DNA of 64,000 nucleotides from Giardia intestinalis (Eukaryota), in assembly GCA_000002435.2 (NCBI GenBank), contig CM018791.1, one strand, 5' to 3'. This document shows, piece by piece, positions 97-57,483 of the stretch. Under the pieces are notes generated by a model. The model was not told where the DNA came from and did no database searches. It saw nothing but the letters and a program-made list of their open reading frames with translations. Position 1 is the stretch's first letter, and each line of letters starts with the position of its first letter. The translations under genes were made by a program, and so were the position numbers.

Positions 97-3000
97 ATGG
101 GCATTTATCAAATCGCATTTCTTTGTCACAGTAGCAGCGGTACATCAGTCAGGGTTGTGTTCACGAACATCTCGTGCCTCGAGCCCAAAGTAACGAGCAC
201 GTCTATTGTCATTCCGTTAGAGCTAAACCGTTGGACCACCCTTGCCGTGGACATGGACCAAGTTTTCCGCAATGCGTACAGAAATGCTATCTCATACAAG
301 GGGGTTCTTCAGTTTGAAGCCATGTCGTCCACCGTCATCAAGGGCGTCTATTTTTGCACCAAGCCTTTTACCCCCTATGACGTACCAGAAGTGATGCTGC
401 TTCCTCTTCCACTTGAGTTAGCATCAGGGAATTACAAGTCTCGTTTCCAATCTGATATTCCTCCCCTGTTGCAATTTTATGATTGGATTGCTGTCGGCTT
501 TGACAATGTAAAAGCAAACGATTTTCAAGCAAGCAATAACATTTACAAGAGCAACCTTTCCGGGCTGTGGCCAAAGCTTTGTACGCACGTTGATTTCTTC
601 GATCCGTCCAGAAATGTTGCCAAGCATCCCACCGGGATATCTGGGGAGGTGGTTGCTAGGGTAGAAATCGAAACAATGGGTCCACTACCCACTAAGCTAC
701 GTCCATCTTCTCGTAGGAACCGCGGGAGTACCTCCGCACAGCGAGGCACTGTATCCCTTCAGGATGCCGAAACCATTGATGCACGCATTAAGAGAACAAG
801 GGGCGTTCAGAGTGCGAAGTACAATACCAAATCAAGCACGACAACGCTAGTGACTGCCCAAGTGCCAGGCAACGTTTCTCGCCGGCTATCTGCACCTGTA
901 TCAGCAACTATCTCGTCAGAGAGTGAGAATGTGATGACAGTGCCAGTGCGCACAGCAAATATATCAGAGAAACGGAGTAAGAGAGAACTGGGGGCTGACC
1001 CTGTTACACAGAGACCTAAGTCATATGTCCAACCTACTAATCCTTTAACCGATGAGCCAGATATGTTCCTCCAGAAGGCGGATATTGAGATTCTTAACCA
1101 GGACGTTCCTGAGCTAAATGCTAGCACGCCAGAAAGCGGTGCAATCTTATCTATTTCAGACTCTCGACTCAGAAGTGACGGATGCTGCTCCGTGGAGACG
1201 CCCCTAACCGCAGCCATTTGTGCCCCAACAATTGCAATTACCCAGCCAGTCGCAGTGAAAAGTAAGGTCGATCTGCCAGTTCTCAACCCCTCTGATACCA
1301 CGCAGACATTGACAATAAACCAGCTCCTGGTGGACACTGGAGAAAGAGTTGACCAGGGGCTGCAAGATGGATTTGCAAAATTCAATGAAGGCATGACAGG
1401 TGTCAAGATACTAATAGACAAAATCTATTCACGGCAAAAGCAGATGCTTCGGCATATCAATACAGCAAATATGAGTAGCTTCCTTTTAATCAATAAGGTA
1501 CCGATGCGCTATCTTACACACATGTCTGCGCTTGAGCCTCAAATTACCATAGGGTTTCAATCAACGACTAGATTTATATATTCATTTCCCCACAAATCCC
1601 TGCTCTCTGATCCCCTATCGTGTCACAATGTGGCACGGGGGCTTCTGGATGATGCTACCGATGAGCAGTGTGAGGAGGCTGCGTGCCGGGTCCTCAATGC
1701 CACGTTTAACATGCGCCTTTTTGATTTGATGGAGAGAGCATGTTATCAACCTCCAGTCTGTGATAGTCCTGATGGTGTATCTTTCGCTAGGTCAAAAAAG
1801 GCTTCTAGACCATCCTCTACAAAGTCTCCGGCTAAGTCAGCACCCACTGAGGCCGCTACTGTGCCTGTCCTGGAGCAAGCCAATCAACTTGTTAATGAGA
1901 TATGCCGCCGAACCCTGGCTGCACAAGGGCTCACACCCACGAAGGTGTTTCCCCAGAGGCAAGTTATCCAGGATATTAACCGTGCCTCCATGATTGGGCA
2001 GTCAAAGAGGCGCCTCTACGATGAGAGTGCTGCCAAGATGGAACAACAGTATTCCAGGAAAAAGGTACGTGTGGCCGAACCTCTAACGTTAGCGTTGCAT
2101 CCGTCATCTGGCATCCAACCTGTGTACACAGGCTATCCTCTTGTTCTGTGCTTCCTGAGTGCCAATTATGTAGTTGCACTTCTATCCTTTTATGAATATA
2201 TAGTATCACATGATGGTAGCTATGCGGTGTCCCCGCTCAGGGCGCAATTCTCACTGAGCCATGACTACTGCATCCTCTGTCTCACGTCTATGCTTTTGCA
2301 GGATAAGCACAAGGAGCACACACTTGCACTTCTCCAGATAGATGACGACTCTCTTTCGAATACCTGTACAGAGTCCACCGATCCTGACCACGGTACTCCG
2401 TCCACAGAATGCCTCCACCAGATAGGATATAAGAGCATTCATCAGCAAGTCGGGCTCTACAAGCCCAAGAACTCAACTGAACCATTTACCTATGCACGGT
2501 ATAAGCAGTATAACGGGGATCTGAGCAATCAGACTTCACTAGGTCAAGCAGAGATCCAGGATATTATTGATACCTTGAGCTCTAGTCAGACTGCCGGAGA
2601 GATGAGTGACAAGCAGAGACATGAGTCCACAAAAGTTCTTCTCATTGCCTCTGCAAAGTATTCGCCTTTCGTAGCTGTGTTCTTCGGTACGTACTTGGCA
2701 CTCTTCGAAGTTATGCCCCTTAGTCTTTGCGCACGGCTCAAAGGGCTATTATTCTATAACAGCAACTCCGCCTTTCCACACATTATCCAGGCCGCGTCCT
2801 TTAGCGACGACTCAACCAAGCTGGTCATCGCTGGGTGCAACAGTTCACTGACTTCGGTAGTAACGGCCGTTATAGATCTAACTGATGCCATTGACCTATC
2901 CAACGAATTTATACTTCTATCCGGCATGGCAGTAGGTGATCAATTACAAGCTTCGCCGACCCTTGAACCAGTCATCCAGGTCCTGTTCCATCCAGGGTCA

Positions 3001-41096: not shown

Positions 41097-44000
41097 ATGG
41101 TTCAAATCTTATCGACTCCTTGTAAAAGTTACAAAAAAGAAGGAGTCCGCGCTATGAATTTCTCCGTTAGTACCAAGAAAGAGTGGTTTGCAAGTATCCT
41201 CGCGCATCGCTATGAGACTGTGCGCGCTTCCATGAAGAAGTTCAGCAAGTCCACAGACGTGGATGGGGAAACTGGGCTCATGTTGGCCACTCGCAACAGC
41301 GATATGGAAATGATCCGGATTCTCATGCCCGTTGAGGCGAAGCTCACCAATAAGGATGGGCTGACCGCATTAATGATTGCTGCGATGCTTGATAACAAGG
41401 ATACGTGTGAAGTCCTTGCAAAGGTGGAGAGTGACGTCATCCTCAAGGATGGCCAGAATGCACTTATGATCGCGGCTGCTAATGGCTCTCTTTCCGCTAC
41501 CAAAATGCTCCTGCGCCACATACAGTACGTTACAGACGATCTGGGGTGGACGGCTCTTGACCACGCAGCAAACGGAGGACATCTCAAGTGCGTGCAACTG
41601 CTTGTTGCAGAAGTCCCGTCCCTTACTGTTAGCGACTTCGAGAACGCTATCTCTGTGGCCTATGACAAGGGCCATTCGCATGTCGTCGATTACCTAGCGT
41701 CTATGATTTACCAGGCAGAAAAGGACACATATGGTGATGATAGTATGACTACTGGCAGCCCGTCCGGACAGACAAGGTCGCGCTCTTCCAGCAAAAGTCA
41801 CAAGAAGAACTCGCTAGAACAAGAAAATAAATCGCTCAAACAGATGAATGCCAAGCTGAATGAAGAGGTCGAAAGGCTGCGAGCTACAGACAAGCGGCGG
41901 CTACGCGAAACACCAAACGATGCTGAGCTGGAGGCAAGAATTCAGGAACTGGAGCGCGAAAACGATATGCTGCGCCAGACAATCCAAAAGAGAGACACTG
42001 GCAATAGCTCTAAGCATGGCGACAACTTGGACGCTAAGTATGACGATCTTTGGCATCAGAAAGAGAAGCTTGAGCAGGAGCTAGAGCACACTCGCAGAAA
42101 TCTGGAGGAGGCAAAGTCAGCTTACAATCGTGTCGATGATACGGAGGTCACGGCCCTCCGAGCTGAGCTGATAGAAGCTAGGGAAATTCAGGAGCAGCGA
42201 ACGCAGACGATCTCAACACTAAACAGGCAGATCGATGACATGCGAAGAGAGCTAGATTATTTGCGTGGAGACAACAAAGCCACGCGTGGAGATGCAGAGA
42301 ACATGGCCACCAGCGCGTCCCAGTTGGCAGGAGAGCTTCAGGACGCTCGTCATGAAATAGACAGACTGAATACCACAATCACCGAGCTCAGACAAGCTGG
42401 GAATCGCAATCCATACGATTCGAATATGGCTGTCCTTCAGCAAGGCCACGCCCAGATGCAGGACATTCAGGCCGAGAACAGAGCGCTGAAGCAGGAGCTT
42501 GACTACTATAGAAACATGCAAGCCAATCAGCCACCGTATCCTGGCTTGGCAGCACAGTCCTCGATGACACACTCTTTTAGGGACTACACTTCACAAGAAA
42601 AGGTAGACCTTAACGGCCCACATGTAATAAGATCAAAGCAGGATCCAGAGAGGGAGCGGACGCTCGACCTACTTCGGTTAGAAAATGCAGATCTGCGTGA
42701 GGTCATAAGGATGCGCGTGAACCCTGTAGCCTTAGACACTGACCCAGAGTCCATTGATGGGAAAATACTTCGGTTAGATAAGCTTAGGGTCGAGAATGAT
42801 CTTCTTAGGCACGAAATCCTGCTTAAGCACTCAATTCTTACCCTCAACATGGAGAAGGATCTTCAGACCATCCGAGCAGAAAATGTTCTTCTGCGCGACG
42901 CGCTTCGGTCCCGCACCTCTACATATGTCCCTCAGGATCTTATTGACCAACTCACTCGACAGAATGACATTATTGCAGCGGAGAACATAGAATATAGGCG
43001 TGCCATTGGCCAAGCAGCTTCTGTGCACCAGCCGTCATACCAAGACGGATATTCGCCTACTCTCAACCCCACTCTGCATGGAAATGGCGGATCCATACCA
43101 CCAGCAGTTATCCAGGAGATAGAGTCTCTGCGGCAGGAGAATCAGACACTCAAGCATCAACTGGCGACTGCACAGCTTGCCCCTTCGGTAGAAACTTTAC
43201 ATAGCACGCAACTTGTACAGCCCAACCACCCACCACTTGAGCTTCAGCGCGAGCTGGATAGACTCACAAATGAGAATATCGATTTGCGCTCCACAATTCA
43301 TCGTCTTCAGAGCAATCAGAATCAACCCCTTGGTAACTCAGTGTCAGACGCAACAGAGATCAGCATGCTGCGCTCAGAAAATGCTAGCCTCAGAGAGGCC
43401 ATGCGCACTCAGGTGCATGACACTAGCACAGGACTGCTTCACAGCCTCACTACAGAGATTGAGACGTTAAAGCAGGAAAACATTATGCTCAAGAATGCCC
43501 TTCATAACCAGCCACCTCCACCACAGCCCCAATCTGTCATCACTAATGTTGTTCCTCCGGAGACCACCTACGAGCTTGAAAGACTCAGAAACGAAAATGT
43601 GACACTCAAAGTTGAGCTAGATAAAACGCGCGCTAGCCTAATGACAGAGATAAACTCCCGTACTATGCAGAGCCAGGCCTCCTCCCAGCATCTTTTAACC
43701 GAGCTGGACACATACAAAGCGCAGATTCAGCGTCTTGAGCGCGAGAATGAACTACTCAGGTCCCTTCCACCTCAAAACATGGGCATGATGGGGACAAACG
43801 GGCCCATGCAAATCGTTATTCCAGGCCTTACACCAAATCGCGAGAACGTTAAGCGGGACGCTGATGGAAACACCAACCTTATCCGTGCTGTTAAAAATAA
43901 CAACATGGACCTTGTTCGCCGATTCTGGCCTGTCGAAGCTGGAGTCCAAAATAACAGAGGCGAATCTGCTCTGATGACCGCAATAGAAATGAACAACACA

Positions 44001-45470
44001 GACGCAGCCCTAATGCTTGTTGAAAGGGAGTCCGGGCTTCAGGATGCGACGGGCCGCTCGGCGCTCATGTGTGCCGCTGAACGGGATAATTACGAGGTTG
44101 CAGTCGAGCTTGCGCAACATGAGCAGGGCTTGAAAATGCCAGATGGTACAACTGCACTCATGATAGCAGCATCCAAGAACCATGTGCGGATCTGCAAGCT
44201 ACTTTCGGAGCAAGAGGGTCAGATGCGGAACACAGAGGGCAACACGGCTCTGCACATTGCTGCAAATCTTGATCACGCAGAAGCATGCGCAGTACTTGTG
44301 GAGCATGCAGGGCTCATTAAGGACAAGGCGGGCCATCTTGCCCTTCACAATGCGTGCATCAGAGGGAATAAGAACGCAGCCCGCGCTCTCTATCGCAAAG
44401 AGAATGGCTTCCATCAGTTTGATGGTTGGACTCCGTTGATGGGTGCAGCGGCCATTGATGACATGACAGAGCTTCGGTTCTATCTTGAGAACTACGTCGG
44501 AATGAAGGACAAGGATGGCATGACTGCGCTCATGTATGCTGCGGTTTGCAACAATCCCAATGCCATTCTGCAGCTCTTGGAGAGGGAATCAGGAATGCGC
44601 ACTAACAAGGGCTACACCGCGCTCATGCTTGCAGCTGAGAAAAATAACGTCAATGCGGTGCAGGTCCTCATGCCCAAGGAGGCTACAATTATGAACAACG
44701 AACGGGAAACGGCCCTGATGATCGCATCTCGGGCAGGTGCCACAGAGTCTGCACGCATCCTGGTGCCCACAGAGGGTGGCATCCGCATGCTGGATGGAAC
44801 GTCCGCACTTAGACTCGCGCTCGATTACAACAACCAAGAACTAGCCCGGTTCTTAGCAGAGCGAGAAGGGATTGCTGTGGGCCAACTCACGCGTGACTTC
44901 CACGGCCGAACAGATCTCATGCGCGCCGCAGAAGAGGGAGACGCCGTATCGGTTTACTGTCTGTTGCCAAGTCAGGGCGGACTTGTTGATGTCGACGGGA
45001 AGACGGCGCTCATGTACGCCTGCGAGCGTGGGCATGTTCAGTGTGCAAGGCTGCTCAAGGAGAAGGAAGCAAGGATGCGCCGGACGATGCGCGACTCATG
45101 GGAGGGTCAGACGGCGCTTATGTTTGCAGCGCAGGCAGGAAGTGTGGAGATCGTAGACCTGCTAATCGACGTTGAGGGAGGCTGCTCTTGCGCCAACGGA
45201 TGGACTGCTCTGATGAGCGCAGCCAGATTCAACAAGGTGGCATGTGTTGAGGCGCTCCTGGACCGCGAGGCGCGCATGCAGACAAATGAGCGGTTCGCTG
45301 CTGGGGCAGGATACACGGCCCTTATGGCTGCCGCAGAATGGTCGTTCATTAAGTGTGTGCGCGCACTGCTTCCTCGCGAGCATGATATCAGGCACTCCAG
45401 CGGAAAGACCGCGATAGACTTTGCGAAGACGAGCACCATCCTCGAGTGCATCAACAACTACCGTCCTTAG
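41097..45470 (+). CDS. Ankyrin, long coiled coil, ankyrin protein (1457 aa), Giardia 21.1-like
   Basis: TALM-type ankyrin repeats occur at both ends. The roughly 650-aa central coiled coil has more than 10 copies of L(R/K)xENxxL(R/K)xxL. The start is uncertain. ATG 41097 is in a GC-rich context. An in-frame ATG at 41153 has an A-rich tract (acaaaaaagaagg) upstream. Confidence 0.6.
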   Translation: MVQILSTPCKSYKKEGVRAMNFSVSTKKEWFASILAHRYETVRASMKKFSKSTDVDGETGLMLATRNSDMEMIRILMPVEAKLTNKDGLTALMIAAMLDNKDTCEVLAKVESDVILKDGQNALMIAAANGSLSATKMLLRHIQYVTDDLGWTALDHAANGGHLKCVQLLVAEVPSLTVSDFENAISVAYDKGHSHVVDYLASMIYQAEKDTYGDDSMTTGSPSGQTRSRSSSKSHKKNSLEQENKSLKQMNAKLNEEVERLRATDKRRLRETPNDAELEARIQELERENDMLRQTIQKRDTGNSSKHGDNLDAKYDDLWHQKEKLEQELEHTRRNLEEAKSAYNRVDDTEVTALRAELIEAREIQEQRTQTISTLNRQIDDMRRELDYLRGDNKATRGDAENMATSASQLAGELQDARHEIDRLNTTITELRQAGNRNPYDSNMAVLQQGHAQMQDIQAENRALKQELDYYRNMQANQPPYPGLAAQSSMTHSFRDYTSQEKVDLNGPHVIRSKQDPERERTLDLLRLENADLREVIRMRVNPVALDTDPESIDGKILRLDKLRVENDLLRHEILLKHSILTLNMEKDLQTIRAENVLLRDALRSRTSTYVPQDLIDQLTRQNDIIAAENIEYRRAIGQAASVHQPSYQDGYSPTLNPTLHGNGGSIPPAVIQEIESLRQENQTLKHQLATAQLAPSVETLHSTQLVQPNHPPLELQRELDRLTNENIDLRSTIHRLQSNQNQPLGNSVSDATEISMLRSENASLREAMRTQVHDTSTGLLHSLTTEIETLKQENIMLKNALHNQPPPPQPQSVITNVVPPETTYELERLRNENVTLKVELDKTRASLMTEINSRTMQSQASSQHLLTELDTYKAQIQRLERENELLRSLPPQNMGMMGTNGPMQIVIPGLTPNRENVKRDADGNTNLIRAVKNNNMDLVRRFWPVEAGVQNNRGESALMTAIEMNNTDAALMLVERESGLQDATGRSALMCAAERDNYEVAVELAQHEQGLKMPDGTTALMIAASKNHVRICKLLSEQEGQMRNTEGNTALHIAANLDHAEACAVLVEHAGLIKDKAGHLALHNACIRGNKNAARALYRKENGFHQFDGWTPLMGAAAIDDMTELRFYLENYVGMKDKDGMTALMYAAVCNNPNAILQLLERESGMRTNKGYTALMLAAEKNNVNAVQVLMPKEATIMNNERETALMIASRAGATESARILVPTEGGIRMLDGTSALRLALDYNNQELARFLAEREGIAVGQLTRDFHGRTDLMRAAEEGDAVSVYCLLPSQGGLVDVDGKTALMYACERGHVQCARLLKEKEARMRRTMRDSWEGQTALMFAAQAGSVEIVDLLIDVEGGCSCANGWTALMSAARFNKVACVEALLDREARMQTNERFAAGAGYTALMAAAEWSFIKCVRALLPREHDIRHSSGKTAIDFAKTSTILECINNYRP

Positions 45471-45542
45471 GGCAGAGGAGATGTAAACACACCGCACCAA
45501 AGCAATTTACTAGAGACGATCAGAAGAATAAGTCTAAGGTGG

Positions 45543-45953
45543 TTAGCAAACTCCGCACATGGCCAGCGAGCCGATTATGATGACGCAGATAGCACACACT
45601 ACAAGTACAACAAAAGCGACGTGAGTGAACCAGGTTTCTACTGGCATACTGGAGGACCAATTCTCATACCAAGGCTGCGCCAGGCCCCACCAAAGCATCA
45701 TGGCACCGCGGAAAAGGTGGTGGGCGATAAAGCCAGACCAGGAGTTCTCGATGAAGGAGTCCCCAAAGCCCGTCCCGAAATCAGAGATGAGAGTGATGAC
45801 CATCCAGAAGAGGAGGGCAAGCTGGTAGACGTGATTCCCGACATGGTCGGTGCCCAGCAGCATCTTAGTGAGCATACCAATGCCGCCTGCAGCAGCCCCA
45901 ACGACCGTGAACCACTTCGCAGTCTCACCCGCGCAACCGGACGCCTTAGTCAT
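45543..45953 (-). CDS. Small 4-TM membrane protein (136 aa), paralogue of the next gene
   Basis: Four hydrophobic helices by eye. ATG confirmed with a very AT-rich upstream (aaatttaaaaaatactg...ATG). Similar to the downstream 137-aa ORF (KWFTVVGAAAGG versus KWISVGSCTAGA; LALLFWMVITLISDFG versus LVLSMWLVLMGLADFS). Confidence 0.55.
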   Translation of the reverse strand: MTKASGCAGETAKWFTVVGAAAGGIGMLTKMLLGTDHVGNHVYQLALLFWMVITLISDFGTGFGDSFIENSWSGFIAHHLFRGAMMLWWGLAQPWYENWSSSMPVETWFTHVAFVVLVVCAICVIIIGSLAMCGVC

Positions 45954-46068
45954 TTTAAATTCCTCGCAACAGTATTTTTTAAATTTGTCCGCAAGCCGAT
46001 TTTCGCATTGCAGTCGCCGATCTCAGGCAACAAGCACGTTATAGATCGAGCATGGAGAGTGGGCGGAG

Positions 46069-46482
46069 TCAGGCGCAAAAGTGAAGAGCTATTCCCAAAA
46101 TCATGACCAAGGCTCCTCCCGTGAGTAAGATGATCCAAAGCACCTTTGTGAGAATGAAAAGTGTTGTAACAGATGCTAAAAGCTGCGTCCAGGTAGTGTA
46201 GCAAGGGAGCATAAGCGAGATTATGATCATACAAGCGCCCCGCTTTACGGGCATTCTTCCTGTCTCTGAGATATACTTAGCATTGAGCGTGTTTGCCGGC
46301 TCCAAACTGAAATCCGCAAGACCCATGAGGACAAGCCACATGGATAAGACTAAGTGTAGCAGAAAGTCGCCCACATATGAGCCCTGGAAAAGAAGAGACG
46401 CAGATGCAAGAGCCCCTGCTGTGCAGGAACCAACGCTGATCCACTTGATCACGCTTGAGAGGACATCTGTGCGATCAGCCAT
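46069..46482 (-). CDS. Small 4-TM membrane protein (137 aa from the internal ATG), tandem paralogue of 45543-45953
   Basis: The ORF-track N-terminal extension (to 46689) overlaps the divergent 491-aa gene. The ATG at 46480-46482 (cat on the plus strand) has an AT-rich upstream (attttaaagcagattttggg) and yields a protein the size of its paralogue. Confidence 0.5.
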   Translation of the reverse strand: MADRTDVLSSVIKWISVGSCTAGALASASLLFQGSYVGDFLLHLVLSMWLVLMGLADFSLEPANTLNAKYISETGRMPVKRGACMIIISLMLPCYTTWTQLLASVTTLFILTKVLWIILLTGGALVMILGIALHFCA

Positions 46483-46553: not shown

Positions 46554-48029
46554 ATGACAAATGCGTACATGGGGGCGACAGACATAGAGAGCACCGCTCT
46601 GCAGGAGCGATGTTCAACTCTGCAGAAGGAAAACTATGAGTTGAGACAGCGGGTCTTTTCTCTTGAGAAGAAACTTGCAGACACGTCAAACAGCCTTAAA
46701 GATGAGTGTGCACGCGAGAGGGCCCGGTACAGAGCTCTAGAGGCGAAGATGGATGAATTTCAGCTTACAACAGAAAGGCATGCTACAAAGCGTGTTGAGG
46801 ACCTTATGCTTGAATGTAGGGATTTAAAGGCCAACTTATCACGAGAGCGGGACCGCACAAAAGCAATGGAGCAGGAGCTCGATGCCCTGTCCAGCTATGC
46901 CAGCGAACGGATCAACCTTTCTCGCCGCCTGGAAATAGCAGAGTCTCGAGTGTCAGACCTAGAAACTCTCCTCGATGTAGATCGAAAGCAGTTCCTTGCA
47001 GAGGCGGCAGAGCAGCGGGCAATGCTCGAAAGCAGGCACCGTGCAGAGGTCCAGGCTGCCGTTGAGGAAGCAATCCGGGCCACCAATGAGAACATTTCCA
47101 CCGAAACGCGCCTCCTCAGAGACCAGAACCAAATCTTGCAGAAGTCAGTTCTTATTTTGAAGGGTTCGGGCGGCAATACAGGTACGAGGCGGGTTCCCAC
47201 AATCAGCAGGATGGAGTCAGAGCTTCCTGGTACCAGCGTGAGCCGCTCACGAACGACCTCTCAGCTCTCCATGGCCAAGGCATCTGTCTCCGGGCATATA
47301 AACTGCGACGAAATAGAAAAGTTTGAAATGGACATCAGCAGAGGTTTAGAAATGAGGATAGGAGAACTCAAAATGACTGTCAAGCATCTTCAAGCAAAAC
47401 TCGAAGAGCAGGCGTCCGATTTTAAGCGGGAGAAAAACGAGGCTAGTGAGTTTATCGCCAATCTCATCTCGAAGTTCAACAAGGAACGTGCAGATCTCCT
47501 CTTCGAAATAAAGTCTCTCGAAAAGCTCGTCTATGCTAAGTGCAAAGAACTCTACAAGCTGCGGACTTTGGCGCAAATGCTTCTTCAGCGCAGGACTGAT
47601 CTGGAAGCGTTTTTATCTAAGCTCTTGGCTGCAACCCTCGACCTGGAGACGAGGGCTATCAGCCCCTACACGATGGCTGAGTACTTTGACGTTGAAATGG
47701 GCCGCCGGCGGTCCTGGTCGCCGTCTCCACCACCAGATTACCGATACACTAGCGGTGCCATCCCCCGAAGCATTTCCTCGGGTTCCGCTCCTGCAGCAGG
47801 AGCGGGGACTTGTCGGGAACTTGCCGCCATCATGACCCGGACTAACCTGAATTCAAACGAGGCTCTCTCCTCCATCACACCGAAGATGCCGCGCACCATG
47901 GCAGAAATGGAGCGCTCTCTAAATACTGCTATCCGAGTGCGCTCTGATCCACTGATAAATTCATTGAGTTCACAAGAGGTTGCTAATATTGTACGCGACT
48001 GGATTACGAAAATAGACATCCCCCTCTAG
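46554..48029 (+). CDS. Coiled-coil protein, 491 aa
   Basis: Heptad-rich throughout (LQKENYELRQRVFSLEKKL, LETLLDVDRKQFLAEAAEQ). An alternative in-frame ATG lies at 46569. The stop is 10 bp from the stop of the convergent 3147-aa gene. Confidence 0.55.
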   Translation: MTNAYMGATDIESTALQERCSTLQKENYELRQRVFSLEKKLADTSNSLKDECARERARYRALEAKMDEFQLTTERHATKRVEDLMLECRDLKANLSRERDRTKAMEQELDALSSYASERINLSRRLEIAESRVSDLETLLDVDRKQFLAEAAEQRAMLESRHRAEVQAAVEEAIRATNENISTETRLLRDQNQILQKSVLILKGSGGNTGTRRVPTISRMESELPGTSVSRSRTTSQLSMAKASVSGHINCDEIEKFEMDISRGLEMRIGELKMTVKHLQAKLEEQASDFKREKNEASEFIANLISKFNKERADLLFEIKSLEKLVYAKCKELYKLRTLAQMLLQRRTDLEAFLSKLLAATLDLETRAISPYTMAEYFDVEMGRRRSWSPSPPPDYRYTSGAIPRSISSGSAPAAGAGTCRELAAIMTRTNLNSNEALSSITPKMPRTMAEMERSLNTAIRVRSDPLINSLSSQEVANIVRDWITKIDIPL

Positions 48030-48039
48030 CCCCATTCAC

Positions 48040-51000
48040 CTAGCTGTACCATCTGAATGTCTCTCTTTGATACCCTACAATTGCGCCATCTACCACAGCC
48101 AAAGAGTCGGCTAGTATCTCAGTCTCACAGACCTTCCTTATGTGTTCTGAAACGTCAGAATCGAGGGAGTATACGAGCTGCTTATTCACGAGCATGTACC
48201 CTGCAAAGCCATCGTCGTACCCCCCGAAGAAGGCAATGTGCTGTACAGGCGCTGGGACACTCAGTGCTTTTATGTGTATGTTTCCCAAGGTGTACAGGTA
48301 TATGTAATATTGGAGCGTCCTTTCCGAGTCCACTGTTGTGTCGTCATTTAGGACAGAGAGACCAACAGCAATGAGCCCTTGCCGCTCATGCACTGCGCAG
48401 TAAGTGATTGCTAGCTTTTCTTCATATGAGATTCTAAATTTGGCTAAGAGGTAGGGAGAGTCTGTTTCTCGTGAACCATAGGATACAGTCCGATGCAGTG
48501 AATTATATTCCAGGACATGAAGAACATGGGGCGAGTAGTAGCAAACCAGTGAGAGCTCGGGAACGTGGAGAAAACTTGACATGGCCAGTCGGCTGTAGTA
48601 TCCTACATCGAGGGGACAATGCTGAATGATAAATAATTGTGGCTGTGCATCAGTAGACAGGTTGCGGATATTGGCCAATATGATCCCCTGGTCGGTGTAT
48701 AAGTGGAGGACATACCCATAGAAGGGCATGTACCCTGCACTGTCGATCTTAGTTATAATGGCATTTTTGCTTGTAGAGCACCGTCTACCGAGTGTGCTGG
48801 CCAGCTTGAATGTAGTGATGTGCATTCCTATGGTCTTGCCTTGCTTAGCTAGCTGAGCCACGGGGATGTTTGTCAATAACCGTGGCTGCGAGCCAGAAGC
48901 ACGTGAGAATCCTAGAATAACGATCTGCCCTGGAGGTGGGTGTTGTGCTCCTGATAGCAATTGATCTGGAGTGTTGAGGCTTCCTGACTCTTGTTCACGC
49001 CCAAGGTTACCACCGGTGAAGACGGAGGAAAGCCCTCCGGACCCTCCTTTTGGAGCTACGTGGAAGGAGTCCAAGAATACCTTAGACAGCTCGAATACGC
49101 TGATCTCTTGGCGATTAATATCAAAGTAGAGCATGTAGGTATCTATGACAATGCAGTCTTTGGTGGTCCAAAGCAATCCATTTATGTGATTTGCCAGAGT
49201 AACGTGTCGTCCTGCAACACAGAGCGCTGGCTGGTTAAAGTGCCGAAATATTAGATCGCACTTTTCAGTTACACTTTGCACAGACCCTGGTGTCAACTGT
49301 TCAAAAGGAACCGTATGCAGATATCTTCTTATATCAACGCTGTGCGTTAGAACTAGCTCTTCGGCCATCTTTGTGGGCTTGTGCACGTTATCCATCAGCG
49401 CCAGCAACTTGGAAAGCTCGTCTTGATGCAATCGTATAGGATAGGTCCCAAAGTAAAGACTCGTAGCGATGCTTGCCTCACCTGGAGAATACTCCGCAGT
49501 GCCACTGGGAAAGAGATTCAGTGCATCCAGAGATTGCTGCTTAGATCCAAATAGTAACTCAATCCACGACCGGAGCCCTCCCTGGTCTGCTTGATTGGAG
49601 AAGATTGTAGATTCTAGAGCAGTTCTCTGAGCATGCACTGTGTCGATCGCCTGCGAGGGTGTGGATTGCAAGGCTTCCGTTACAGTTTCGGCGTCAGAGG
49701 AAAGCTGCAATCCGTTAGTATTTGTAAAAATATACGGAGTATAGAAGAGTTCCGGAATGGCCTCGTGGAATGAGCTGCCCAGCTCCACTTTCTCCCAGTG
49801 AGATCGCAGGCTAATGAAAAGTCGTGAGAAGGCATCCAAACACCCACCTTGGAGATTGCGTTGTAACGACGTAAAGGGCTCCACACAAAAACAATAATAA
49901 GGAAGAGTCATGTTGTTACTTATGAACGTTCTGAAGAGGGGGCTTGCCGAAAGTAACTTCATGGCGGAGGGAGACAGATTGGCTCTTTCAAGGCCTTTTC
50001 TAAAGAAAGAAATGGCGTCTTCACTGCTCGCTGTAGCAGCCTTCTCCAGTGTCTGCATGCTTTGCTTAAGGATGTCGTTAAGGAAAGCAGTTGCAGCCAT
50101 CTTGTCCTGAAGAGATGTGCTTTGCAGCTCACCAAGGGACATCTCTGCATACTTGGCGATGCTCTTACAGAGGGAGGTGTTGCTCTGTGCAGGCAGCGGA
50201 TACCTTAGATTTCGCGGCTTAGCAGATTTTCGTGGAGACAATGCTGGGAAAATGGGGTATATGTAAGATACAACAGGGGAACGCGCTGCGATCATGTTCA
50301 TTGCCGAGAGCAATGTGAATACAGAGAACTGGATCATTGTCAGAGAAATGGTATTGTTAGCCATCAAGAGAGAGATACGGCGACCCAAGATCAGCCGTAG
50401 CTGTCCAAGGAGCTCTGCCTGGAAAGTAGACACAATGGTCTCGAAGTCCAAGAGAACACCCTTCTTCTTATAAGGGGACTTGGAATAGTAGTAGCAGGTG
50501 CCATAAGCGCTTCCACTACCAGATTCTCCGCACCCGAACCGACGGTAATAACCGTAATTGTGAATCAGCTTAACTGCATGCTCTTGCGTTTTGAAGAGTA
50601 GGACATGCACAGCCCCATTAGATTCGATTATCTGCAAGGCAGGTTGCATTCGAATAAAGAAGAACGGAACCATGTATAGGATTCGCGAATACTCAATGGA
50701 CAGTTCAACCTCCTTATACTTATGGTAGGCCCTATTCTGAGTAGACATACAATAGTCGTAGAGCCCATACGATATCCGCCGGCCAAAGCTGTCCTGCTTC
50801 CTAGAAAAGCTATTTTCTAGATGGATGCTTCGAGGGTTATCCTTTGTGCACAAGAGACGCCTCAGAATAGAGAACGACTCTGCTTCTTGATGCTCCTTAA
50901 TAGCAGAGTTTGCGGGTTCATCTGCAGCTTGAAGTGCTCCAGTGGAGTCGTCTGCATCGCTCTCTGATCGCTGGTCAAATCGCGCCCAATTGAATAGAAA

Positions 51001-54000
51001 CGTCTGACTTTGGTGTCCAGTGTATGCTACAAAGTTGGGCTCAGTGTCCATTACTGAGAAGCACATCTTTTCCTGATATTTATCCGTAATCACAAGCTGC
51101 TCTCCCATTGGCGGGGCTTGCTTCTCAGCCTTGTCAATAAGGTCTGAGGATACACGGAGGCTGAGCACCCCGTATCCTGTATAGACCAGGGATACCACTA
51201 AGACGTCGCCAAACTCTATAAGACGACGGCTTGTGCTGGTATTTGTCACACTATACTGCCTTAAGCTCGTTGAACTGAGGGGTGGCAACGCACCGCCAAT
51301 ATCAGTCAGACAAGAATCTGCCAAGCGACCATTGACGTCAGACTGGATGAAGGTGGGACTTAGGCGCACAGAGGGATATGAAAATACAGATGGACTTAGT
51401 AACACCAACTTTTGGCTACTGAGATGATGCATTTGCTTATATATGGGGTGTGGCAGAAAGAAGTGAGCCACGATAGACTCCCTGGAGTATAGATACTTCT
51501 GATAGAATAGATGTAAAGCAGTGGATGAATCAGCCAGGTCTCCTCCCTTATGTCTACCTTCGGTCTTTGTTTGCCCATCCAAAGAAAACGCTGTGTCAGC
51601 AGAAGCGTTCATCATTTCGAGATGAGCTAAGGTTGAAAAGATCCCGAAAGAGTCTACAGACGCGACAATAGTCTTGGGAGATCTATATTTTGGTGTGTAG
51701 CTGCAGATAATGCATACGTTTCCACAGATTGCCCGTATCATTTCGAGTGAAAGCCCTTGGAGAGCTATGGAAGACAGACAGCCTGGGCAGACGTAACGCT
51801 CAGCCGAATCTCCATCTGCCCTTGCATTCTGCATACTAGGCATGTTGATAAACGGGTTTCCAATGGGGCAAAAGCGCAGTTCATCAGGTAGATATGGAGT
51901 CCATCGAGCGGAGTTCCCATCCGTAGAGAAGGGAAGCACGTCGATAGATGCACTTGTGCGAAGAACGTCAAGCTTTTTGTGGAGTTGCTCTGCAGCTGCC
52001 TTTGAGTAGGTATTCAAGCAGGTGCACACTAAGGAAAGCGGAGCAGATTGCCACACAGTAGCGAGGCCGTTGACTGATGATAGTCTGGTAGCTAGCTCTT
52101 GAAGAAATTCTGCCGGGTCATCATCACTCTTTGCAAATACACACACAGAACGAAGTATGGATATTGTTGTAGCTATGTAAGAATGCGTGGTCGTGAAGTG
52201 ATCCAAAAGTGCGGCCATCATATCGAGTATCTTTCGAAGCAACGAGACACTGCCATCCAACGCGCTGTAGTTTCTACTGGCCTCATCCAAGCCCAGAAGG
52301 GATAGCACATCTGCACCGACCTGGGAAAATAGCGCCAATGCAGCTAGAGAAACGAGTCCTGTTGTCATGTGAATGTATTCTGTATATAATAATTCATCGG
52401 AGAGCCCGAGAACATGTCTCAACGAAGCTAGAGAACTAGGGCAAGACACTGACTCATCTGCAACAAGTGGTAGCACTGCATAAGTCACTAGCATTTTCTC
52501 AAAACGATCATACTGCCCCTTGACAAGCAAATTGAAAAGAAGAAATGCGAAGAAGTCTGTGATGCCGTATAGTGTAGTAAATGTCTTAAGAATTGGTTCT
52601 TCTGACACTGAAAAATCTGTGCTTTCCAAAAGCTGCTCGATGCCAATAAGAAGCTCAGGAATTGCCTCCTTCCTTGGTGCCCAGTCTTTCCATATCAGTC
52701 TCGTTAGGGTAGAGGAGACAGCGACGTCGTCTATTGATAAAATAACGGGCAACAGAAGCATCTTTTCGTAAAAATAAAGATCTGCCACAACAGGGACAGC
52801 TTTGATAATAGAATACGCCTCCTCCCTTACAGCGTTTGTGTACAGGTCATAAATTAGTGCAATCAAGTCCTTATTTGAGAACGATGTCGTGACTGGAAAG
52901 GGCAGAGACATGCATTTAAGAAGCTGCACTAACATAATTGTGTGCGTATCATTGTCCTGTGAATACCTCCGCAAAAGAGCTACAAACTGCTCCATTGGCC
53001 TGCCGTACGAGGTGGCGCCAATACAGTTGGCAATCTCATCTGATACACGACAGAAAAGAAGTAATTGATACATGATAAAGCAGACGGGTGCTGTTCTTTC
53101 GCCAACACCGCGAAGGAGATAGTACCCCTCCGAGAAAACCATGTGGTGTAACTGGCAAAGTTTCACGTAGAAGGACTGCTCTGCTACCGTCCATTGCCAG
53201 CTCTGCAATTCAGTCACTTCTTTAGATGGACTTGCATCAGGAAAGTAGAGCGCAACTGGAACAATGATAAGCTCGTGATAAAGTTTCGTCAACAAAAGAA
53301 GTAGGTGTGGATGTGACTCACGCTGAGAGCTGATAATGAATTCAAACAGAAGCCTTGTAAATACAACAACCACATGAAGAGCTTGCATCCGTAGGGGCCA
53401 GTGCAGTATGGAGAAGTAGGCGATGAGAAGCTTATACCCACAGGCACGACTAAATATCTCTTCTACCTCTGCGTCCTGCAACATATGAAGAAGCTTCAGA
53501 AGAAGAGCCGGTTCGAACTCTTGCTTGTAGCGAGGCGTCTTCCCACTGCACCCATTCTCTCCAAGGAAGAGAAGGGAGAGTATCTGGAACAACCCACTTA
53601 TGTCGTAATTCCAGACATCCTGTGGCATGATGGCTCTGACTAGCTCACCATCTGCGGTATCATCATACATTATAAACGAATAGCCAATGGTCTCTGCGTA
53701 AGCCCATGTAAATGTTGGTGCTTGAAAACGTTGGAAGTGTTGTCGGTCGTTTTGTTGCTGAGTGTAAATGGCAACAGGGTAGATCCTTGTCGGATATGAG
53801 ACTGCAACACTATTGACGGCGCAAAAGGCGTCATCGCTAAGATATAGAAGCCTTATTGCCGCGTCTATGTCCAGGCGTGCTTCTAGCAGTGAGCTTGAAG
53901 TATCAATGTCCAGAGGGATAGATGTGATAAAAGAATCCCCTTTGCTGAGAATTGTGTAACACAATAAAACAAGGTTTTCAGGCGAAAACGTTGCCTCAAT

Positions 54001-57000
54001 GTATATCCACTCAGCTCTTTCATCCAATGGAACAATATACTTGCTAGACGACGTGCTTAGACTTGTAGAAAAGAAAACTGATCCATCCTGTATCCAAATG
54101 GTCAAGGTTATTGCCTCTGGTTGCGGCCTAGTTGTGTCACCTGCTCCCTTGTGAATAGTCAACGTAAGAGTCATCGTATAGCTATTTTTCACGTGGCAAT
54201 AAGTAAAGATTGTAGCATTTATCGAACTCAGCGAGACTGTTTTGCGTGCCCTTTTAAGTGGAGAGCTCCCCGAGCGCAATATTAAAAAGTTCCCTGGAAC
54301 AATTGCTTCTGCTTGTAAGGTTTGAGTCACCTGATCAGGACTCGGCTCCAACAATGGATGTACCTGAATTTGAAATAGCACATTAAAGTAGGAGAGAAAG
54401 CGCAGCATTCCGTCTTCATCAGCAGAAGCCTCTTGCCGCTCCGTTAGCAGATAGTAACAGGGGAGCTCGCTGCCCAATTGCTTCAGTAAATATCGAGCAA
54501 CGGCATTGTGGAGAATAAGGGAACTAGACTGCTTTAGCAGCAGAGAGAGCAGACGCACATCTAGAGGCGAATCCTCATCGGCAGCAGAGAAGAATGCGGG
54601 GAAGATATTGACTTTCGCAGTAAAGTCTGCAATGATGCGAAGTGTGTGTTGCTCCCCGCTGAGAATGCATGAACGTATAAACAGGTTGAGGGCCAGACGA
54701 GAAAAGTAAGCTTTACCACCTGTCGTAAGTTCATGCAAATATTCTAAGGACGCAGCTATGCACCGTAGTGAACGATGAGAAGAGGCTTTCCAAAGTGTTA
54801 GCGACGGGGTTGACAAGAACAGGAGACGAATAGAAATATCGTCATGGCCTGCTGCAGGATCGTGGAGCACCAAGTCATACAAAGCAGATTGAAATACTGT
54901 GAAGTCACGAGACACAAGCTTACTCCATTTTCCTGCCTGATAACTGTGTGAAGAGTCTCTAATAGACTGGAGTCTGCCCCGGAGCGAACGCTTATTGCCA
55001 CCAACAGACAGAAAGGACGGAATGCCTTGAAACAAAGAGCCAGAGATGATATAGCAGGACATAGATGAAGCACATAGAAAGATAAGGCACTGGTGAATGA
55101 GGTCAAGCCGGGCACTCTTGTCGCTAAGTACAAGCGTCATGATCTTCCTTAGTAGCGTTCTTAGATCAAAGTCATACCCTCGAACGTACTGCTCAGGTTG
55201 AGCTTCGTGGATTGTCTCCTCTAATAATGCAGACAAGTTGAGCATTTCCCCAATAAGAATAAACATGAGTATAAGCACATTCTGGGGTGATATTGACAAC
55301 TTCTCAAATTCAACCAAGACATAGTCGAAAAGATGAATCAACTCAACCGAGGTAGATGCCTTCCAAAAGGTAACTAGTTGATGCTCCTTCTTATTAAAAT
55401 GGCCGAGTGTAATGTGTTGGAAGAGCATGCAAAGTAGAACGATTTCCAGACATGGCCCCCCATACGCGATAACCTCACGAACGACACGAGAGTAAACGTC
55501 AAGAAAGACATTACCGGAGGGAGGTTCGCTGATGCACAATGTTGAGACATAGGCGAATTCTAAGAAGGTAATCAGATTATCGCACAGGAGTTTGAACATT
55601 TGCTGCTGAAGCATGGATGAGTAGCCTTTATATACCCATGAGACAGACAGAAAACTGTCAAGAAATTTAGCTGTTGTCAGTGAGGCTGTCTCATTCGGCG
55701 CAGTAAAGCACTCGTTATATATAGTCTTGCAAGTAGTGTGCAGCGAGCTCCCTGGCGTTGAGGGGTCGATCAATTCTCTAGTGATAGATCTATACACGGT
55801 CGGGGACACTTCTAGAAGTCCAAGGAGTGCCTCTTGAAAGATGGGAACATCCTCTGGAGAAAGTGTAGTATGCAGAGATTGTAAAAACGGGACGCATTCT
55901 TTATAAATAAAGGGTAGCGCTACGTAAGTAATCATAGTAATGCAATGGGCCTCAGCTTGGTCAAGCCACGTGGATCCCGTAGGGGCTCCGATAGCAAGAC
56001 ACACTCTGTAGAGAATCAACATAAGATGGAGGAGAAACGCAGCATCAACGTTTGCCGCCATATGCCGCTTAATGTTGGTCTTAATTAAACCTAGAAATAG
56101 ATTGAAAACGGCATCCATCCGCACCGGCGCCAACTGAAAGATTTTAATAAGAGTACATACAAGAAAATCTGAGTCTAGAGTATCTAGTGAAACCGTTATG
56201 CTGAAGTACTTAGTTAGTATGCTAAGCAGGACATTCTCTAGCTTATCACTAAGTAAGCGACTAGTCAGATCACTTTTCACAACGAGCTTTCCTCCTTTGG
56301 AAGAAGAGGCTTGATGGGCAATCAGATTGCACCGAAGGCTAGCAAGGCGCTGGATACAATCCACATAGAACGCGAGAGCAAGAGATATTTCATGAAGTCC
56401 CGTACCATCCTTGGAAAGCAACACATCAAGCTTTTCTAACGCATATAAAAAGCCTGTAGACCGATACATGGTACGTAGAGACCCAGAGGTTCTGCTTATG
56501 TGTACGGGCGAAACCCTTGAGAAAACAATCTCTCTTAAGCACGATAAGGAGCTCTTTAATGCCCATATAAATGTTTCATATTCTTCTACACAGTTCAGCA
56601 TTGTAAAGATAGCGTCAATAGCTGTGCTCTGAAGTGTGAGGAGGTCGACAGGCTGCAGATATGCGGTGCATACGTGTGGCCTGCTGGCAGATGTCTTGCA
56701 AATGTGAGATATAACACGTAACCTTCTAGAAAATAGAAACTTTGGTGAGATCTGAGTTTTCTCTCTCATTTGTGTGATGAGAGCATAGTGATGCACATCT
56801 TCTAATAGTGAAGCGAGCGAAAACAAAAATCTAAGACCTTCCTTGCTGTAAAGCGCTAGGTCGATAAGGCCAATTTGGTCCGTGGTATCCATAACAAGCT
56901 TCCCGTCGCTAGGTAAAAGTACATCCACATTCTGACCGGAGACTGCGACTCGCAGACTTTTTCTCAAGATGCCAAAGCATACTGTTGCTAGGTGGCTATT

Positions 57001-57483
57001 GGGATTGAGCCTGATGAAGAAAAGCAAAGCAATCATGCGGTTCAAAAGGGTCAAGAGCATGTGGCGAGGCCCAGCATCCTGATACAAGAAAGCAGTAAAT
57101 AAGGATGAAGACTCAGGTTGGAGCGCTTCGTCACACTGGTAAATATTATAGAGGGTAGCTGTAAGCATGTAGACAAGCGGTAGACGAAGGGCTGAGAGAT
57201 TTTGTTTTGCTGGATACACCTGGCTTTCACTGAGTGTACAATCAAGGAGCGCCCTTAGCGGCGTTTGACCTAGGAACTGGCGCGCATCGTGAACGTACGC
57301 ATTGTCTAATAGGAGTGAAGTCTTCAAAAGGGTTTTGTGCACCTCCTGAGAAGAGCTCAATATAGTGGTCAGAATCAGGGGCTTCAGTTGTTGACTATTG
57401 CTGGACTTGTCTATGTCCTCTGTCTCTAAGCCCTTCAACAGCTCACTGTGGAATCTAAGAACAGCGGCAACAAGACAGTCCAT
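48040..57483 (-). CDS. Large hypothetical protein, 3147 aa, mostly alpha-helical/solenoid-like with a possibly beta-rich C-terminal region
   Basis: Complete ORF. ATG confirmed (cat at 57481-57483) with an AT-rich upstream (ctttcaaaaactaATG). No kinase, AAA or other catalytic motif seen by eye. Confidence 0.65.
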   Translation of the reverse strand: MDCLVAAVLRFHSELLKGLETEDIDKSSNSQQLKPLILTTILSSSQEVHKTLLKTSLLLDNAYVHDARQFLGQTPLRALLDCTLSESQVYPAKQNLSALRLPLVYMLTATLYNIYQCDEALQPESSSLFTAFLYQDAGPRHMLLTLLNRMIALLFFIRLNPNSHLATVCFGILRKSLRVAVSGQNVDVLLPSDGKLVMDTTDQIGLIDLALYSKEGLRFLFSLASLLEDVHHYALITQMREKTQISPKFLFSRRLRVISHICKTSASRPHVCTAYLQPVDLLTLQSTAIDAIFTMLNCVEEYETFIWALKSSLSCLREIVFSRVSPVHISRTSGSLRTMYRSTGFLYALEKLDVLLSKDGTGLHEISLALAFYVDCIQRLASLRCNLIAHQASSSKGGKLVVKSDLTSRLLSDKLENVLLSILTKYFSITVSLDTLDSDFLVCTLIKIFQLAPVRMDAVFNLFLGLIKTNIKRHMAANVDAAFLLHLMLILYRVCLAIGAPTGSTWLDQAEAHCITMITYVALPFIYKECVPFLQSLHTTLSPEDVPIFQEALLGLLEVSPTVYRSITRELIDPSTPGSSLHTTCKTIYNECFTAPNETASLTTAKFLDSFLSVSWVYKGYSSMLQQQMFKLLCDNLITFLEFAYVSTLCISEPPSGNVFLDVYSRVVREVIAYGGPCLEIVLLCMLFQHITLGHFNKKEHQLVTFWKASTSVELIHLFDYVLVEFEKLSISPQNVLILMFILIGEMLNLSALLEETIHEAQPEQYVRGYDFDLRTLLRKIMTLVLSDKSARLDLIHQCLIFLCASSMSCYIISGSLFQGIPSFLSVGGNKRSLRGRLQSIRDSSHSYQAGKWSKLVSRDFTVFQSALYDLVLHDPAAGHDDISIRLLFLSTPSLTLWKASSHRSLRCIAASLEYLHELTTGGKAYFSRLALNLFIRSCILSGEQHTLRIIADFTAKVNIFPAFFSAADEDSPLDVRLLSLLLKQSSSLILHNAVARYLLKQLGSELPCYYLLTERQEASADEDGMLRFLSYFNVLFQIQVHPLLEPSPDQVTQTLQAEAIVPGNFLILRSGSSPLKRARKTVSLSSINATIFTYCHVKNSYTMTLTLTIHKGAGDTTRPQPEAITLTIWIQDGSVFFSTSLSTSSSKYIVPLDERAEWIYIEATFSPENLVLLCYTILSKGDSFITSIPLDIDTSSSLLEARLDIDAAIRLLYLSDDAFCAVNSVAVSYPTRIYPVAIYTQQQNDRQHFQRFQAPTFTWAYAETIGYSFIMYDDTADGELVRAIMPQDVWNYDISGLFQILSLLFLGENGCSGKTPRYKQEFEPALLLKLLHMLQDAEVEEIFSRACGYKLLIAYFSILHWPLRMQALHVVVVFTRLLFEFIISSQRESHPHLLLLLTKLYHELIIVPVALYFPDASPSKEVTELQSWQWTVAEQSFYVKLCQLHHMVFSEGYYLLRGVGERTAPVCFIMYQLLLFCRVSDEIANCIGATSYGRPMEQFVALLRRYSQDNDTHTIMLVQLLKCMSLPFPVTTSFSNKDLIALIYDLYTNAVREEAYSIIKAVPVVADLYFYEKMLLLPVILSIDDVAVSSTLTRLIWKDWAPRKEAIPELLIGIEQLLESTDFSVSEEPILKTFTTLYGITDFFAFLLFNLLVKGQYDRFEKMLVTYAVLPLVADESVSCPSSLASLRHVLGLSDELLYTEYIHMTTGLVSLAALALFSQVGADVLSLLGLDEASRNYSALDGSVSLLRKILDMMAALLDHFTTTHSYIATTISILRSVCVFAKSDDDPAEFLQELATRLSSVNGLATVWQSAPLSLVCTCLNTYSKAAAEQLHKKLDVLRTSASIDVLPFSTDGNSARWTPYLPDELRFCPIGNPFINMPSMQNARADGDSAERYVCPGCLSSIALQGLSLEMIRAICGNVCIICSYTPKYRSPKTIVASVDSFGIFSTLAHLEMMNASADTAFSLDGQTKTEGRHKGGDLADSSTALHLFYQKYLYSRESIVAHFFLPHPIYKQMHHLSSQKLVLLSPSVFSYPSVRLSPTFIQSDVNGRLADSCLTDIGGALPPLSSTSLRQYSVTNTSTSRRLIEFGDVLVVSLVYTGYGVLSLRVSSDLIDKAEKQAPPMGEQLVITDKYQEKMCFSVMDTEPNFVAYTGHQSQTFLFNWARFDQRSESDADDSTGALQAADEPANSAIKEHQEAESFSILRRLLCTKDNPRSIHLENSFSRKQDSFGRRISYGLYDYCMSTQNRAYHKYKEVELSIEYSRILYMVPFFFIRMQPALQIIESNGAVHVLLFKTQEHAVKLIHNYGYYRRFGCGESGSGSAYGTCYYYSKSPYKKKGVLLDFETIVSTFQAELLGQLRLILGRRISLLMANNTISLTMIQFSVFTLLSAMNMIAARSPVVSYIYPIFPALSPRKSAKPRNLRYPLPAQSNTSLCKSIAKYAEMSLGELQSTSLQDKMAATAFLNDILKQSMQTLEKAATASSEDAISFFRKGLERANLSPSAMKLLSASPLFRTFISNNMTLPYYCFCVEPFTSLQRNLQGGCLDAFSRLFISLRSHWEKVELGSSFHEAIPELFYTPYIFTNTNGLQLSSDAETVTEALQSTPSQAIDTVHAQRTALESTIFSNQADQGGLRSWIELLFGSKQQSLDALNLFPSGTAEYSPGEASIATSLYFGTYPIRLHQDELSKLLALMDNVHKPTKMAEELVLTHSVDIRRYLHTVPFEQLTPGSVQSVTEKCDLIFRHFNQPALCVAGRHVTLANHINGLLWTTKDCIVIDTYMLYFDINRQEISVFELSKVFLDSFHVAPKGGSGGLSSVFTGGNLGREQESGSLNTPDQLLSGAQHPPPGQIVILGFSRASGSQPRLLTNIPVAQLAKQGKTIGMHITTFKLASTLGRRCSTSKNAIITKIDSAGYMPFYGYVLHLYTDQGIILANIRNLSTDAQPQLFIIQHCPLDVGYYSRLAMSSFLHVPELSLVCYYSPHVLHVLEYNSLHRTVSYGSRETDSPYLLAKFRISYEEKLAITYCAVHERQGLIAVGLSVLNDDTTVDSERTLQYYIYLYTLGNIHIKALSVPAPVQHIAFFGGYDDGFAGYMLVNKQLVYSLDSDVSEHIRKVCETEILADSLAVVDGAIVGYQRETFRWYS

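Follow-up and report, generated by a model that had tools for sequence, protein, structure and literature searches.

An anciently duplicated, syntenic pair of small, probably four-span membrane proteins in Giardia duodenalis and its possible distant relationship to TVP15

We analyzed a 64,000-nucleotide (nt) stretch of Giardia contig CM018791.1 (GenBank assembly GCA_000002435.2), hereafter the window, and focused on two adjacent minus-strand genes encoding small hydrophobic proteins: GL50803_4705 (the downstream gene; hereafter A) and GL50803_27193 (the upstream gene; hereafter B). The comparisons described below showed that A and B are two genuine, anciently duplicated adjacent genes for integral membrane proteins of ~137 amino acids (aa). 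As to their nature, we propose, with a probability of roughly 0.5, that they are diverged TVP15-type residents of Giardia secretory and endocytic carriers, which would be non-catalytic, would reach the cell periphery, and might act as a pair. The two genes are as follows.

45543..45953, minus strand: gene A, GL50803_4705, 136 aa plus stop codon, paralog of B; translation a 100% match to GL50803_4705
46069..46482, minus strand: gene B, GL50803_27193, 137 aa plus stop codon; translation an exact match to XP_001705747 / GL50803_0027193

The 100% identity of A to GL50803_4705 of strain WB, together with the identity of B to GL50803_27193, assigned the host of the window to G. duodenalis assemblage A. 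Coordinates, strand, protein lengths, and the 115-nt gap between the genes agreed in full with the first-pass annotation of this DNA, and the motifs quoted there were recovered (KWFTV/KWISV and LALLFWMVITLISDF/LVLSMWLVLMGLADF). Both genes are already present in databases as hypothetical proteins, and A has already been tagged with green fluorescent protein (GFP). A longer version of B, a TTG-initiated open reading frame (ORF) of 206 aa, was rejected because every ortholog starts at the internal Met and because the longer frame would run into the divergent neighboring gene.

The paralogy of A and B was established at the sequence level by three kinds of comparison, which bore out the tandem duplication proposed at first pass. 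BLASTP aligned the two proteins end to end (131 aa aligned at 25% identity and 44% positives; E = 5e-9), and profiles of their orthologs were matched by hhalign with 96.7% probability (E = 3.8e-10, 127 columns). The Smith–Waterman score was 104, compared with 32–35 ± 5–7 in 2000 shuffles. When shuffling was confined to windows of 10–25 aa, which preserves the placement of hydrophobic segments, the z-score was 10–13.7 and none of the 2000 shuffles reached the real score; the similarity of A and B is thus not that of shuffled hydrophobic sequences, an objection that the first-pass annotation had itself raised. A third copy was found neither within the window (tblastn) nor among the Giardia proteins when 1.84 billion representative proteins were searched with a profile.

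Orthologs of both genes were recovered together with their DNA from assemblage E (P15; contig L010), from another assemblage (L007), and from a more distant lineage (L009), and the gene order BEACH / coiled-coil / B / A / ankyrin was constant in P15, L007, and L009. The A orthologs were 94%, 84%, and 51% identical to A, and the corresponding identities for B were 69–89% in other assemblages and 31% in a distant Giardia. The ratio of nonsynonymous to synonymous substitution rates (dN/dS; Nei–Gojobori method, dS 0.5–2) was 0.06–0.11 for A and 0.09–0.15 for B; such low values in both frames indicated strong purifying selection.

To place the family, we searched the 1.84 billion representatives with a profile built from the Giardia sequences. 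Five real clusters were retrieved, namely the A type, the B type, P0014 (E = 1e-19), P0015 (E = 2.9e-11), and P0016 (E = 2.5e-6); two further matches were repetitive proteins and were discarded as spurious. P0014 is encoded on an 8.6-kb contig (L006, from SRR30592944; GC content ~53–56%) of a distant Giardia, which carries, in order, a coiled-coil gene (minus strand), a B-like gene of 134 aa, a 34-nt spacer, an A-like gene of 137 aa, and an ankyrin gene (minus strand), the same order as in the window. The coiled-coil ortholog lies at 1554–2945 (minus strand) of that contig, head-to-head with the B-like gene as in the window, and the A-like protein was 51% identical to GL50803_4705. In a neighbor-joining tree, the A clade had 100% bootstrap support, and the split uniting all B-type sequences, including that of L006, had 95.5%. 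The tandem pair on L006, the synteny, and the tree together indicate that the duplication predates the split between G. duodenalis and the distant Giardia, such that, as judged from sequence, it is ancient and syntenic and not recent. Of the two, B has evolved more rapidly, being 31% identical to its L006 copy, compared with 51% for A.

The remaining two clusters, P0015 (168 aa) and P0016 (121 aa), are encoded adjacently on the same strand of a single 3.8-kb contig (L005, 814–2037; GC content 58–61%) from JGI metagenome 3300010163, and these were the sole non-Giardia relatives among the 1.84 billion proteins, in line with the lineage restriction suggested at first pass. They grouped together weakly in the tree (65% bootstrap), and the L005 pair may thus represent an independent duplication. 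Word-indexed homolog searches with each protein and with a 10-sequence alignment returned Giardia orthologs only, and scans of metagenomes and viral contigs yielded no more relatives, though a known family contig was also missed there.

Next, we examined the architecture of the proteins. The AlphaFold model of B, based on a 12-sequence alignment, was a four-helix bundle (predicted local distance difference test [pLDDT] 78.4; predicted template modeling score 0.68) with helices at approximately residues 2–31, 37–55, 78–91, and 107–136 and short loop helices, including one at 61–71 before the third; the model of A was poor (pLDDT 53) and too weak for use. Hydropathy analysis showed that helix 4 is very hydrophobic, that helices 1 and 2 are moderately so, and that helix 3 (approximately residues 80–95) is short and weak, having ~14 hydrophobic residues and failing a simple insertion-energy screen in most members. 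The four-span label given at first pass was therefore strengthened by the bundle predicted for B and weakened by the low hydrophobicity of helix 3, and four membrane spans in A and B are probable, albeit unproven.

Lys and Arg are absent from loops 1 and 3 of both proteins, with two such residues at the N-terminus and one (A) or four (B) in loop 2. Under the positive-inside rule, this distribution would place both termini and the long middle loop in the cytosol. The residues invariant in the family are K13-W14, G39, W50, F59, R82-G83, W99, and G128, and D58 is nearly invariant. K13 lies in the KW before helix 1, D58 in the DF after helix 2, and R82 in the RG before helix 3; with the topology suggested here, these conserved charges would cluster at the cytosolic face of the membrane. 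At the C-terminus of the A-type proteins is a conserved LAMCGV[CV] (window 45543–45560; LAMCGVC in WB) with juxtamembrane cysteines, a CaaX-like or juxtamembrane-cysteine motif that could be a lipidation site. The WB A protein has two CxxC pairs (CAIC and CGVC), which are not conserved in L006, and the B-type proteins keep a single Cys 2–5 residues from the end.

The case for a relationship with TVP15 comes from profile searches of 12 family members against Pfam, in which no family exceeded its curated threshold. PF08507 (COPI_assoc; gathering cut-off 30 bits) was the most frequent match, occurring below threshold in half of the members, with E-values of 3.1e-5 for P0015 (24.5 bits, the best), 0.047 for P0005, 0.091 for P0016, and 0.22 for B (12 bits). 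P0015 itself is linked to the Giardia proteins by an E-value of 2.9e-11 in the search of 1.84 billion proteins. The register was constant, running from family position ~11, aligned with profile position ~3, through to ~93–107 of 130. Two consensus sequences derived from hidden Markov models (HMMs) of the family also had PF08507 as their top match (E = 1.5e-4 and 1.6e-3; 19–22 bits), and it was matched by none of the nine control sequences, whether reversed or locally shuffled, whose best random matches had E-values of 0.04–0.1. We also compared the family with a 143-aa Tvp15-like sequence that scored 130 bits on PF08507. When aligned with the family, it shared K13, F59, G83, and G128; its K-[WF], [DE]-F, Y..F...L.RG, and fourth-helix Gly motifs aligned with those of the family, and hhalign and Smith–Waterman alignment both selected the Y..F...L.RG segment. 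PF08507 proteins have been reported from fungi, Plasmodium, Leishmania, ciliates, and plants, and this eukaryote-wide occurrence makes a metamonad member plausible.

Each protein is predicted to be an up-down four-helix bundle. If the TVP15 relationship holds, as is most likely though unproven, the family would be an extremely diverged metamonad branch of, or a sister to, TVP15/COPI_assoc. PF08507 proteins are non-enzymatic four-helix residents of vesicles derived from the Golgi and endosomes; A and B would likewise be passive or organizing membrane components of reduced secretory and endocytic carriers, and would travel with these carriers to the cell periphery. The conserved pairing of an A-type with a B-type protein suggests joint action, possibly as a hetero-oligomer. 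The proteins are not enzymes, VSP- or HCMP-type surface antigens, or claudin/MARVEL-type junction proteins; the lack of VSP or HCMP character noted at first pass was upheld.

Expression and localization data are available for A, and the label of unknown function given to the pair at first pass was in this respect slightly too pessimistic. In high-density in vivo foci, the GL50803_4705 transcript was reported at 2510 fragments per kilobase of transcript per million mapped reads (FPKM), against 416 FPKM in culture, a 6.0-fold difference (q = 0.0006; Pham et al., 2017, PMC5450421). The in vitro encystation series of Einarsson gives 799 (trophozoite), 326, 667, 562, and 483 (cyst) FPKM for the same gene (PMC5450421, Table S9). 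With 416–799 FPKM in cultured trophozoites and this in vitro series, the mRNA appears to be constitutive and abundant and not induced by encystation in vitro. In wide-field microscopy, A carrying a C-terminal GFP was reported to label the cyst wall but to give no signal in trophozoites (PMC5450421). For a polytopic protein, such a "cyst wall" signal more likely marks the underlying plasma membrane, and travel of carriers to the periphery would account for the outlining of the cyst by 4705-GFP. The published tag masks the conserved LAMCGV[CV] end. The presence of mRNA without GFP signal in trophozoites may reflect post-transcriptional control or a tag artifact. Our literature search found no publication on GL50803_27193, and the searched portions of the Giardia encystation-transcriptome and organelle-proteome supplements held no entry for 4705 or 27193.

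Several observations weigh against assigning A and B to TVP15-type carriers. No member reached 30 bits on PF08507, B reached 12 bits, and A gave no match to it. Peptidase_U4, the membrane domain of SpoIIGA, recurred in four of the 12 members in a consistent register with a best E-value of 2.8e-4, which indicates that, for such hydrophobic proteins, a match at E ~1e-4 can be spurious. In direct comparisons, the Tvp15-like sequence scored 1.5 bits on the family HMM, a value equaled by 253 of 1973 shuffles (13%); hhalign of the family against it gave E = 0.096 over 26 columns, and its Smith–Waterman alignment with P0015 was non-significant against shuffles (z = 2.4). The Giardia-only profile retrieved no canonical COPI_assoc protein at E ≤ 1e-3 among the 1.84 billion proteins. 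The C-terminal GFP fusion was reported as "cyst wall", with no trophozoite signal despite abundant trophozoite mRNA. Finally, the carrier function is an inference, and the hetero-oligomer is deduced purely from conserved adjacency. A sequence profile search of the PDB returned noise (E at least 0.47). We therefore do not file A and B as PF08507 members and consider the odds of a genuine but very remote relationship to be about even. The TVP15 link was favored over SpoIIGA in that the consensus sequences strengthened the PF08507 match and weakened that to SpoIIGA, and in that the PF08507 family is eukaryote-wide and of matching size and predicted helix number.

The most serious alternative, which we regard as a substantial if tentative possibility, is that A and B form an orphan family of Giardia and its close relatives, unlinked to TVP15 or any tetraspan and with a structural role in the plasma membrane. 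The Pfam signals would then reflect a shared spacing of four hydrophobic helices, and in cysts the proteins would reside in the membrane under the wall, for example anchoring the membrane–wall interface. Such an origin would account for the position of every Pfam match under its curated cut-off, for the competition between two unrelated Pfam families, for the non-significant outcome of direct comparisons with a verified COPI_assoc sequence, and for the recovery of only five clusters. The location of 4705-GFP at the cyst periphery or wall, and not in trophozoite endomembranes, and the 6-fold higher 4705 mRNA in encysting in vivo foci also fit a surface role. However, the orphan family would leave unexplained that PF08507 recurs in diverged members and in the consensus sequences in one register while being absent from nine controls, and that the Tvp15-like sequence has residues in common with the invariant positions of the family. 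Moreover, a dedicated cyst function is unsupported by expression, since 4705 mRNA was not induced by in vitro encystation.

A more specific scenario, which we consider unlikely, is a metamonad-specific invention unrelated to TVP15, in which A and B would be obligate partners in a hetero-oligomeric four-helix complex of the surface membrane. The complex, for example a small pore or an anchor between membrane and wall, would be deployed both in vivo and in cysts. Such a complex would explain the kept adjacency of the genes, the upregulation of 4705 in the host, and the mark at the cyst periphery.

Membership in the classical tetraspan superfamily (MARVEL/synaptogyrin, PMP22/claudin/LHFPL, MS4A, or tetraspanin) is highly improbable and effectively refuted at the sequence level. 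None of the 12 members matched a Pfam family of this superfamily at E ≤ 10, including MARVEL (PF01284), PMP22/claudin (PF00822), and tetraspanin (PF00335); the first-pass annotation had likewise described the proteins as MARVEL- or PMP22-like in size only. Loop 1 comprises ~6–8 residues, leaving no room for the beta-sheet loop with W-GLW-C-C of claudin and PMP22; loop 3, of ~14–16 residues without CCG, is too short for the large loop of tetraspanins. Still more remote is a relationship to the N-terminal membrane domain of SpoIIGA (Peptidase_U4, PF03419). Its sub-threshold matches in four of the 12 members covered profile positions 29–131 of 284 and reached 20.7 bits (E = 2.8e-4); however, all of them lay under the cut-off of 28.4 bits and involved the transmembrane helices alone, the catalytic C-terminal half being absent. 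The consensus sequences dropped to E = 0.17 or to no match, in contrast to the strengthening of PF08507, and there is no biological reason to expect a Firmicutes sporulation domain in a metamonad. Lastly, the idea that A, B, or both are open frames arisen by chance and not genes, to which their short length, hydrophobicity, lack of Pfam annotation, and overlap with antisense ORFs might point, is practically negligible in view of the dN/dS of 0.06–0.15 at dS 0.5–2, the length and synteny kept across Giardia lineages, and, for A, for which it is already refuted, the abundant mRNA and expressed GFP fusion.

The non-coding elements at the locus are as follows.

45954..46068, minus strand: spacer between B and A, 115 nt, with an AT-rich initiator-type element directly 5′ of the A ATG (aaatttaaaaaat...ggaatttaaaATG)
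45505..45511, minus strand: AGTAAAT, Giardia-type polyadenylation signal, 32 nt past the A stop codon; same position in P15 (L010) and L007
46483..46553, no strand assigned: divergent intergenic region, 71 nt, common to B and the 491-aa coiled-coil gene

The AGTAAAT-type signal is the Giardia consensus at mRNA 3′ ends, and on L006 AGTGAAT occurs 20 nt past the A-like stop codon. For B, no polyadenylation signal of the AGTRAA type was found in the 45954–46068 spacer of this isolate. The B–A spacer on L006 spans only 34 nt. B may be co-transcribed with A or have an unusual 3′ end. The AT-rich element adjoining the A ATG is kept in P15 and L007, and another AT-rich element, gtaattttaaag, lies ~25–35 nt before the B start and is kept in P15, L007, and L009. 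A Myb2-type site, CTGTTG (45969–45974, 19 nt before the A start; the reverse of CAACAG; CTACAG-type according to PMC3656124), was rejected; it is absent from the P15 and L007 promoters and is probably a chance match. The idea of an encystation promoter for A was dropped, as this site is unconserved and the mRNA is not induced by in vitro encystation.

Three genes of kinds typical for Giardia flank the pair.

41097-45470, plus strand: 1457-aa protein with ankyrin repeats and coiled coil
46554-48029, plus strand: 491-aa coiled-coil protein, divergent from B across 71 nt
48040-57483, minus strand: 3147-aa BEACH-domain protein

The BEACH-domain and ankyrin genes were syntenic in all Giardia contigs fetched. 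The 491-aa coiled-coil protein gave a weak Rab11-FIP3-like Pfam match (E = 0.0011; 19.7 bits against a cut-off of 31.9). Elsewhere in the window, an uninterrupted ORF of 7100 aa (15329–36631, minus strand) is among the largest possible genes.

The endomembrane system of Giardia is drastically reduced, and few small trafficking-associated membrane proteins have been identified in it. If A and B are TVP15-type, a conserved eukaryotic vesicle component would be added to the Giardia inventory, together with a marker for carriers reaching the cyst periphery. If they are lineage-specific, they would constitute a highly expressed, in vivo-induced, Giardia-restricted pair of potential use as a stage or diagnostic marker. 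Under either reading, this is an ordinary case in which annotation gains incrementally and no new principle emerges; what is new here is the old syntenic duplication, the very narrow distribution, and the possible TVP15 affinity.

Among known systems, MARVEL proteins (synaptogyrin and synaptophysin) and the PMP22/claudin/LHFPL proteins gave structural scores equal to those for soluble helix bundles, such that the resemblance is generic. The yeast Tlg2-vesicle tetraspans Tvp18 (Flower family) and Tvp23 are of the same general kind, being small, non-enzymatic, multi-span residents of late-Golgi and endosomal carriers; however, neither family matched any of the 12 members in Pfam, and the resemblance is in kind only. 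Yeast Tvp15 is described as a Golgi/endosome membrane protein of the Tlg2 compartment (Inadome et al., 2007, as cited in PMC13470650 and PMC6682643). The Giardia proteins differ from the TVP15 family in that the gene is tandemly duplicated, that A and B end at helix 4 with Cys whereas the Tvp15-like sequence has an acidic C-terminal tail, and that the sole localization data for A point to the cyst periphery and not to the Golgi. Giardia has no stacked Golgi. What the proteins have in common with the TVP15 family is a length of ~135–145 aa, probably four hydrophobic helices with no other domain, a co-linear sub-threshold profile match over helices 1–4 in half of the members, and a series of shared positions, with K-[WF] preceding helix 1, [DE]-F following helix 2, Y..F...L.RG preceding helix 3, and a Gly within helix 4.
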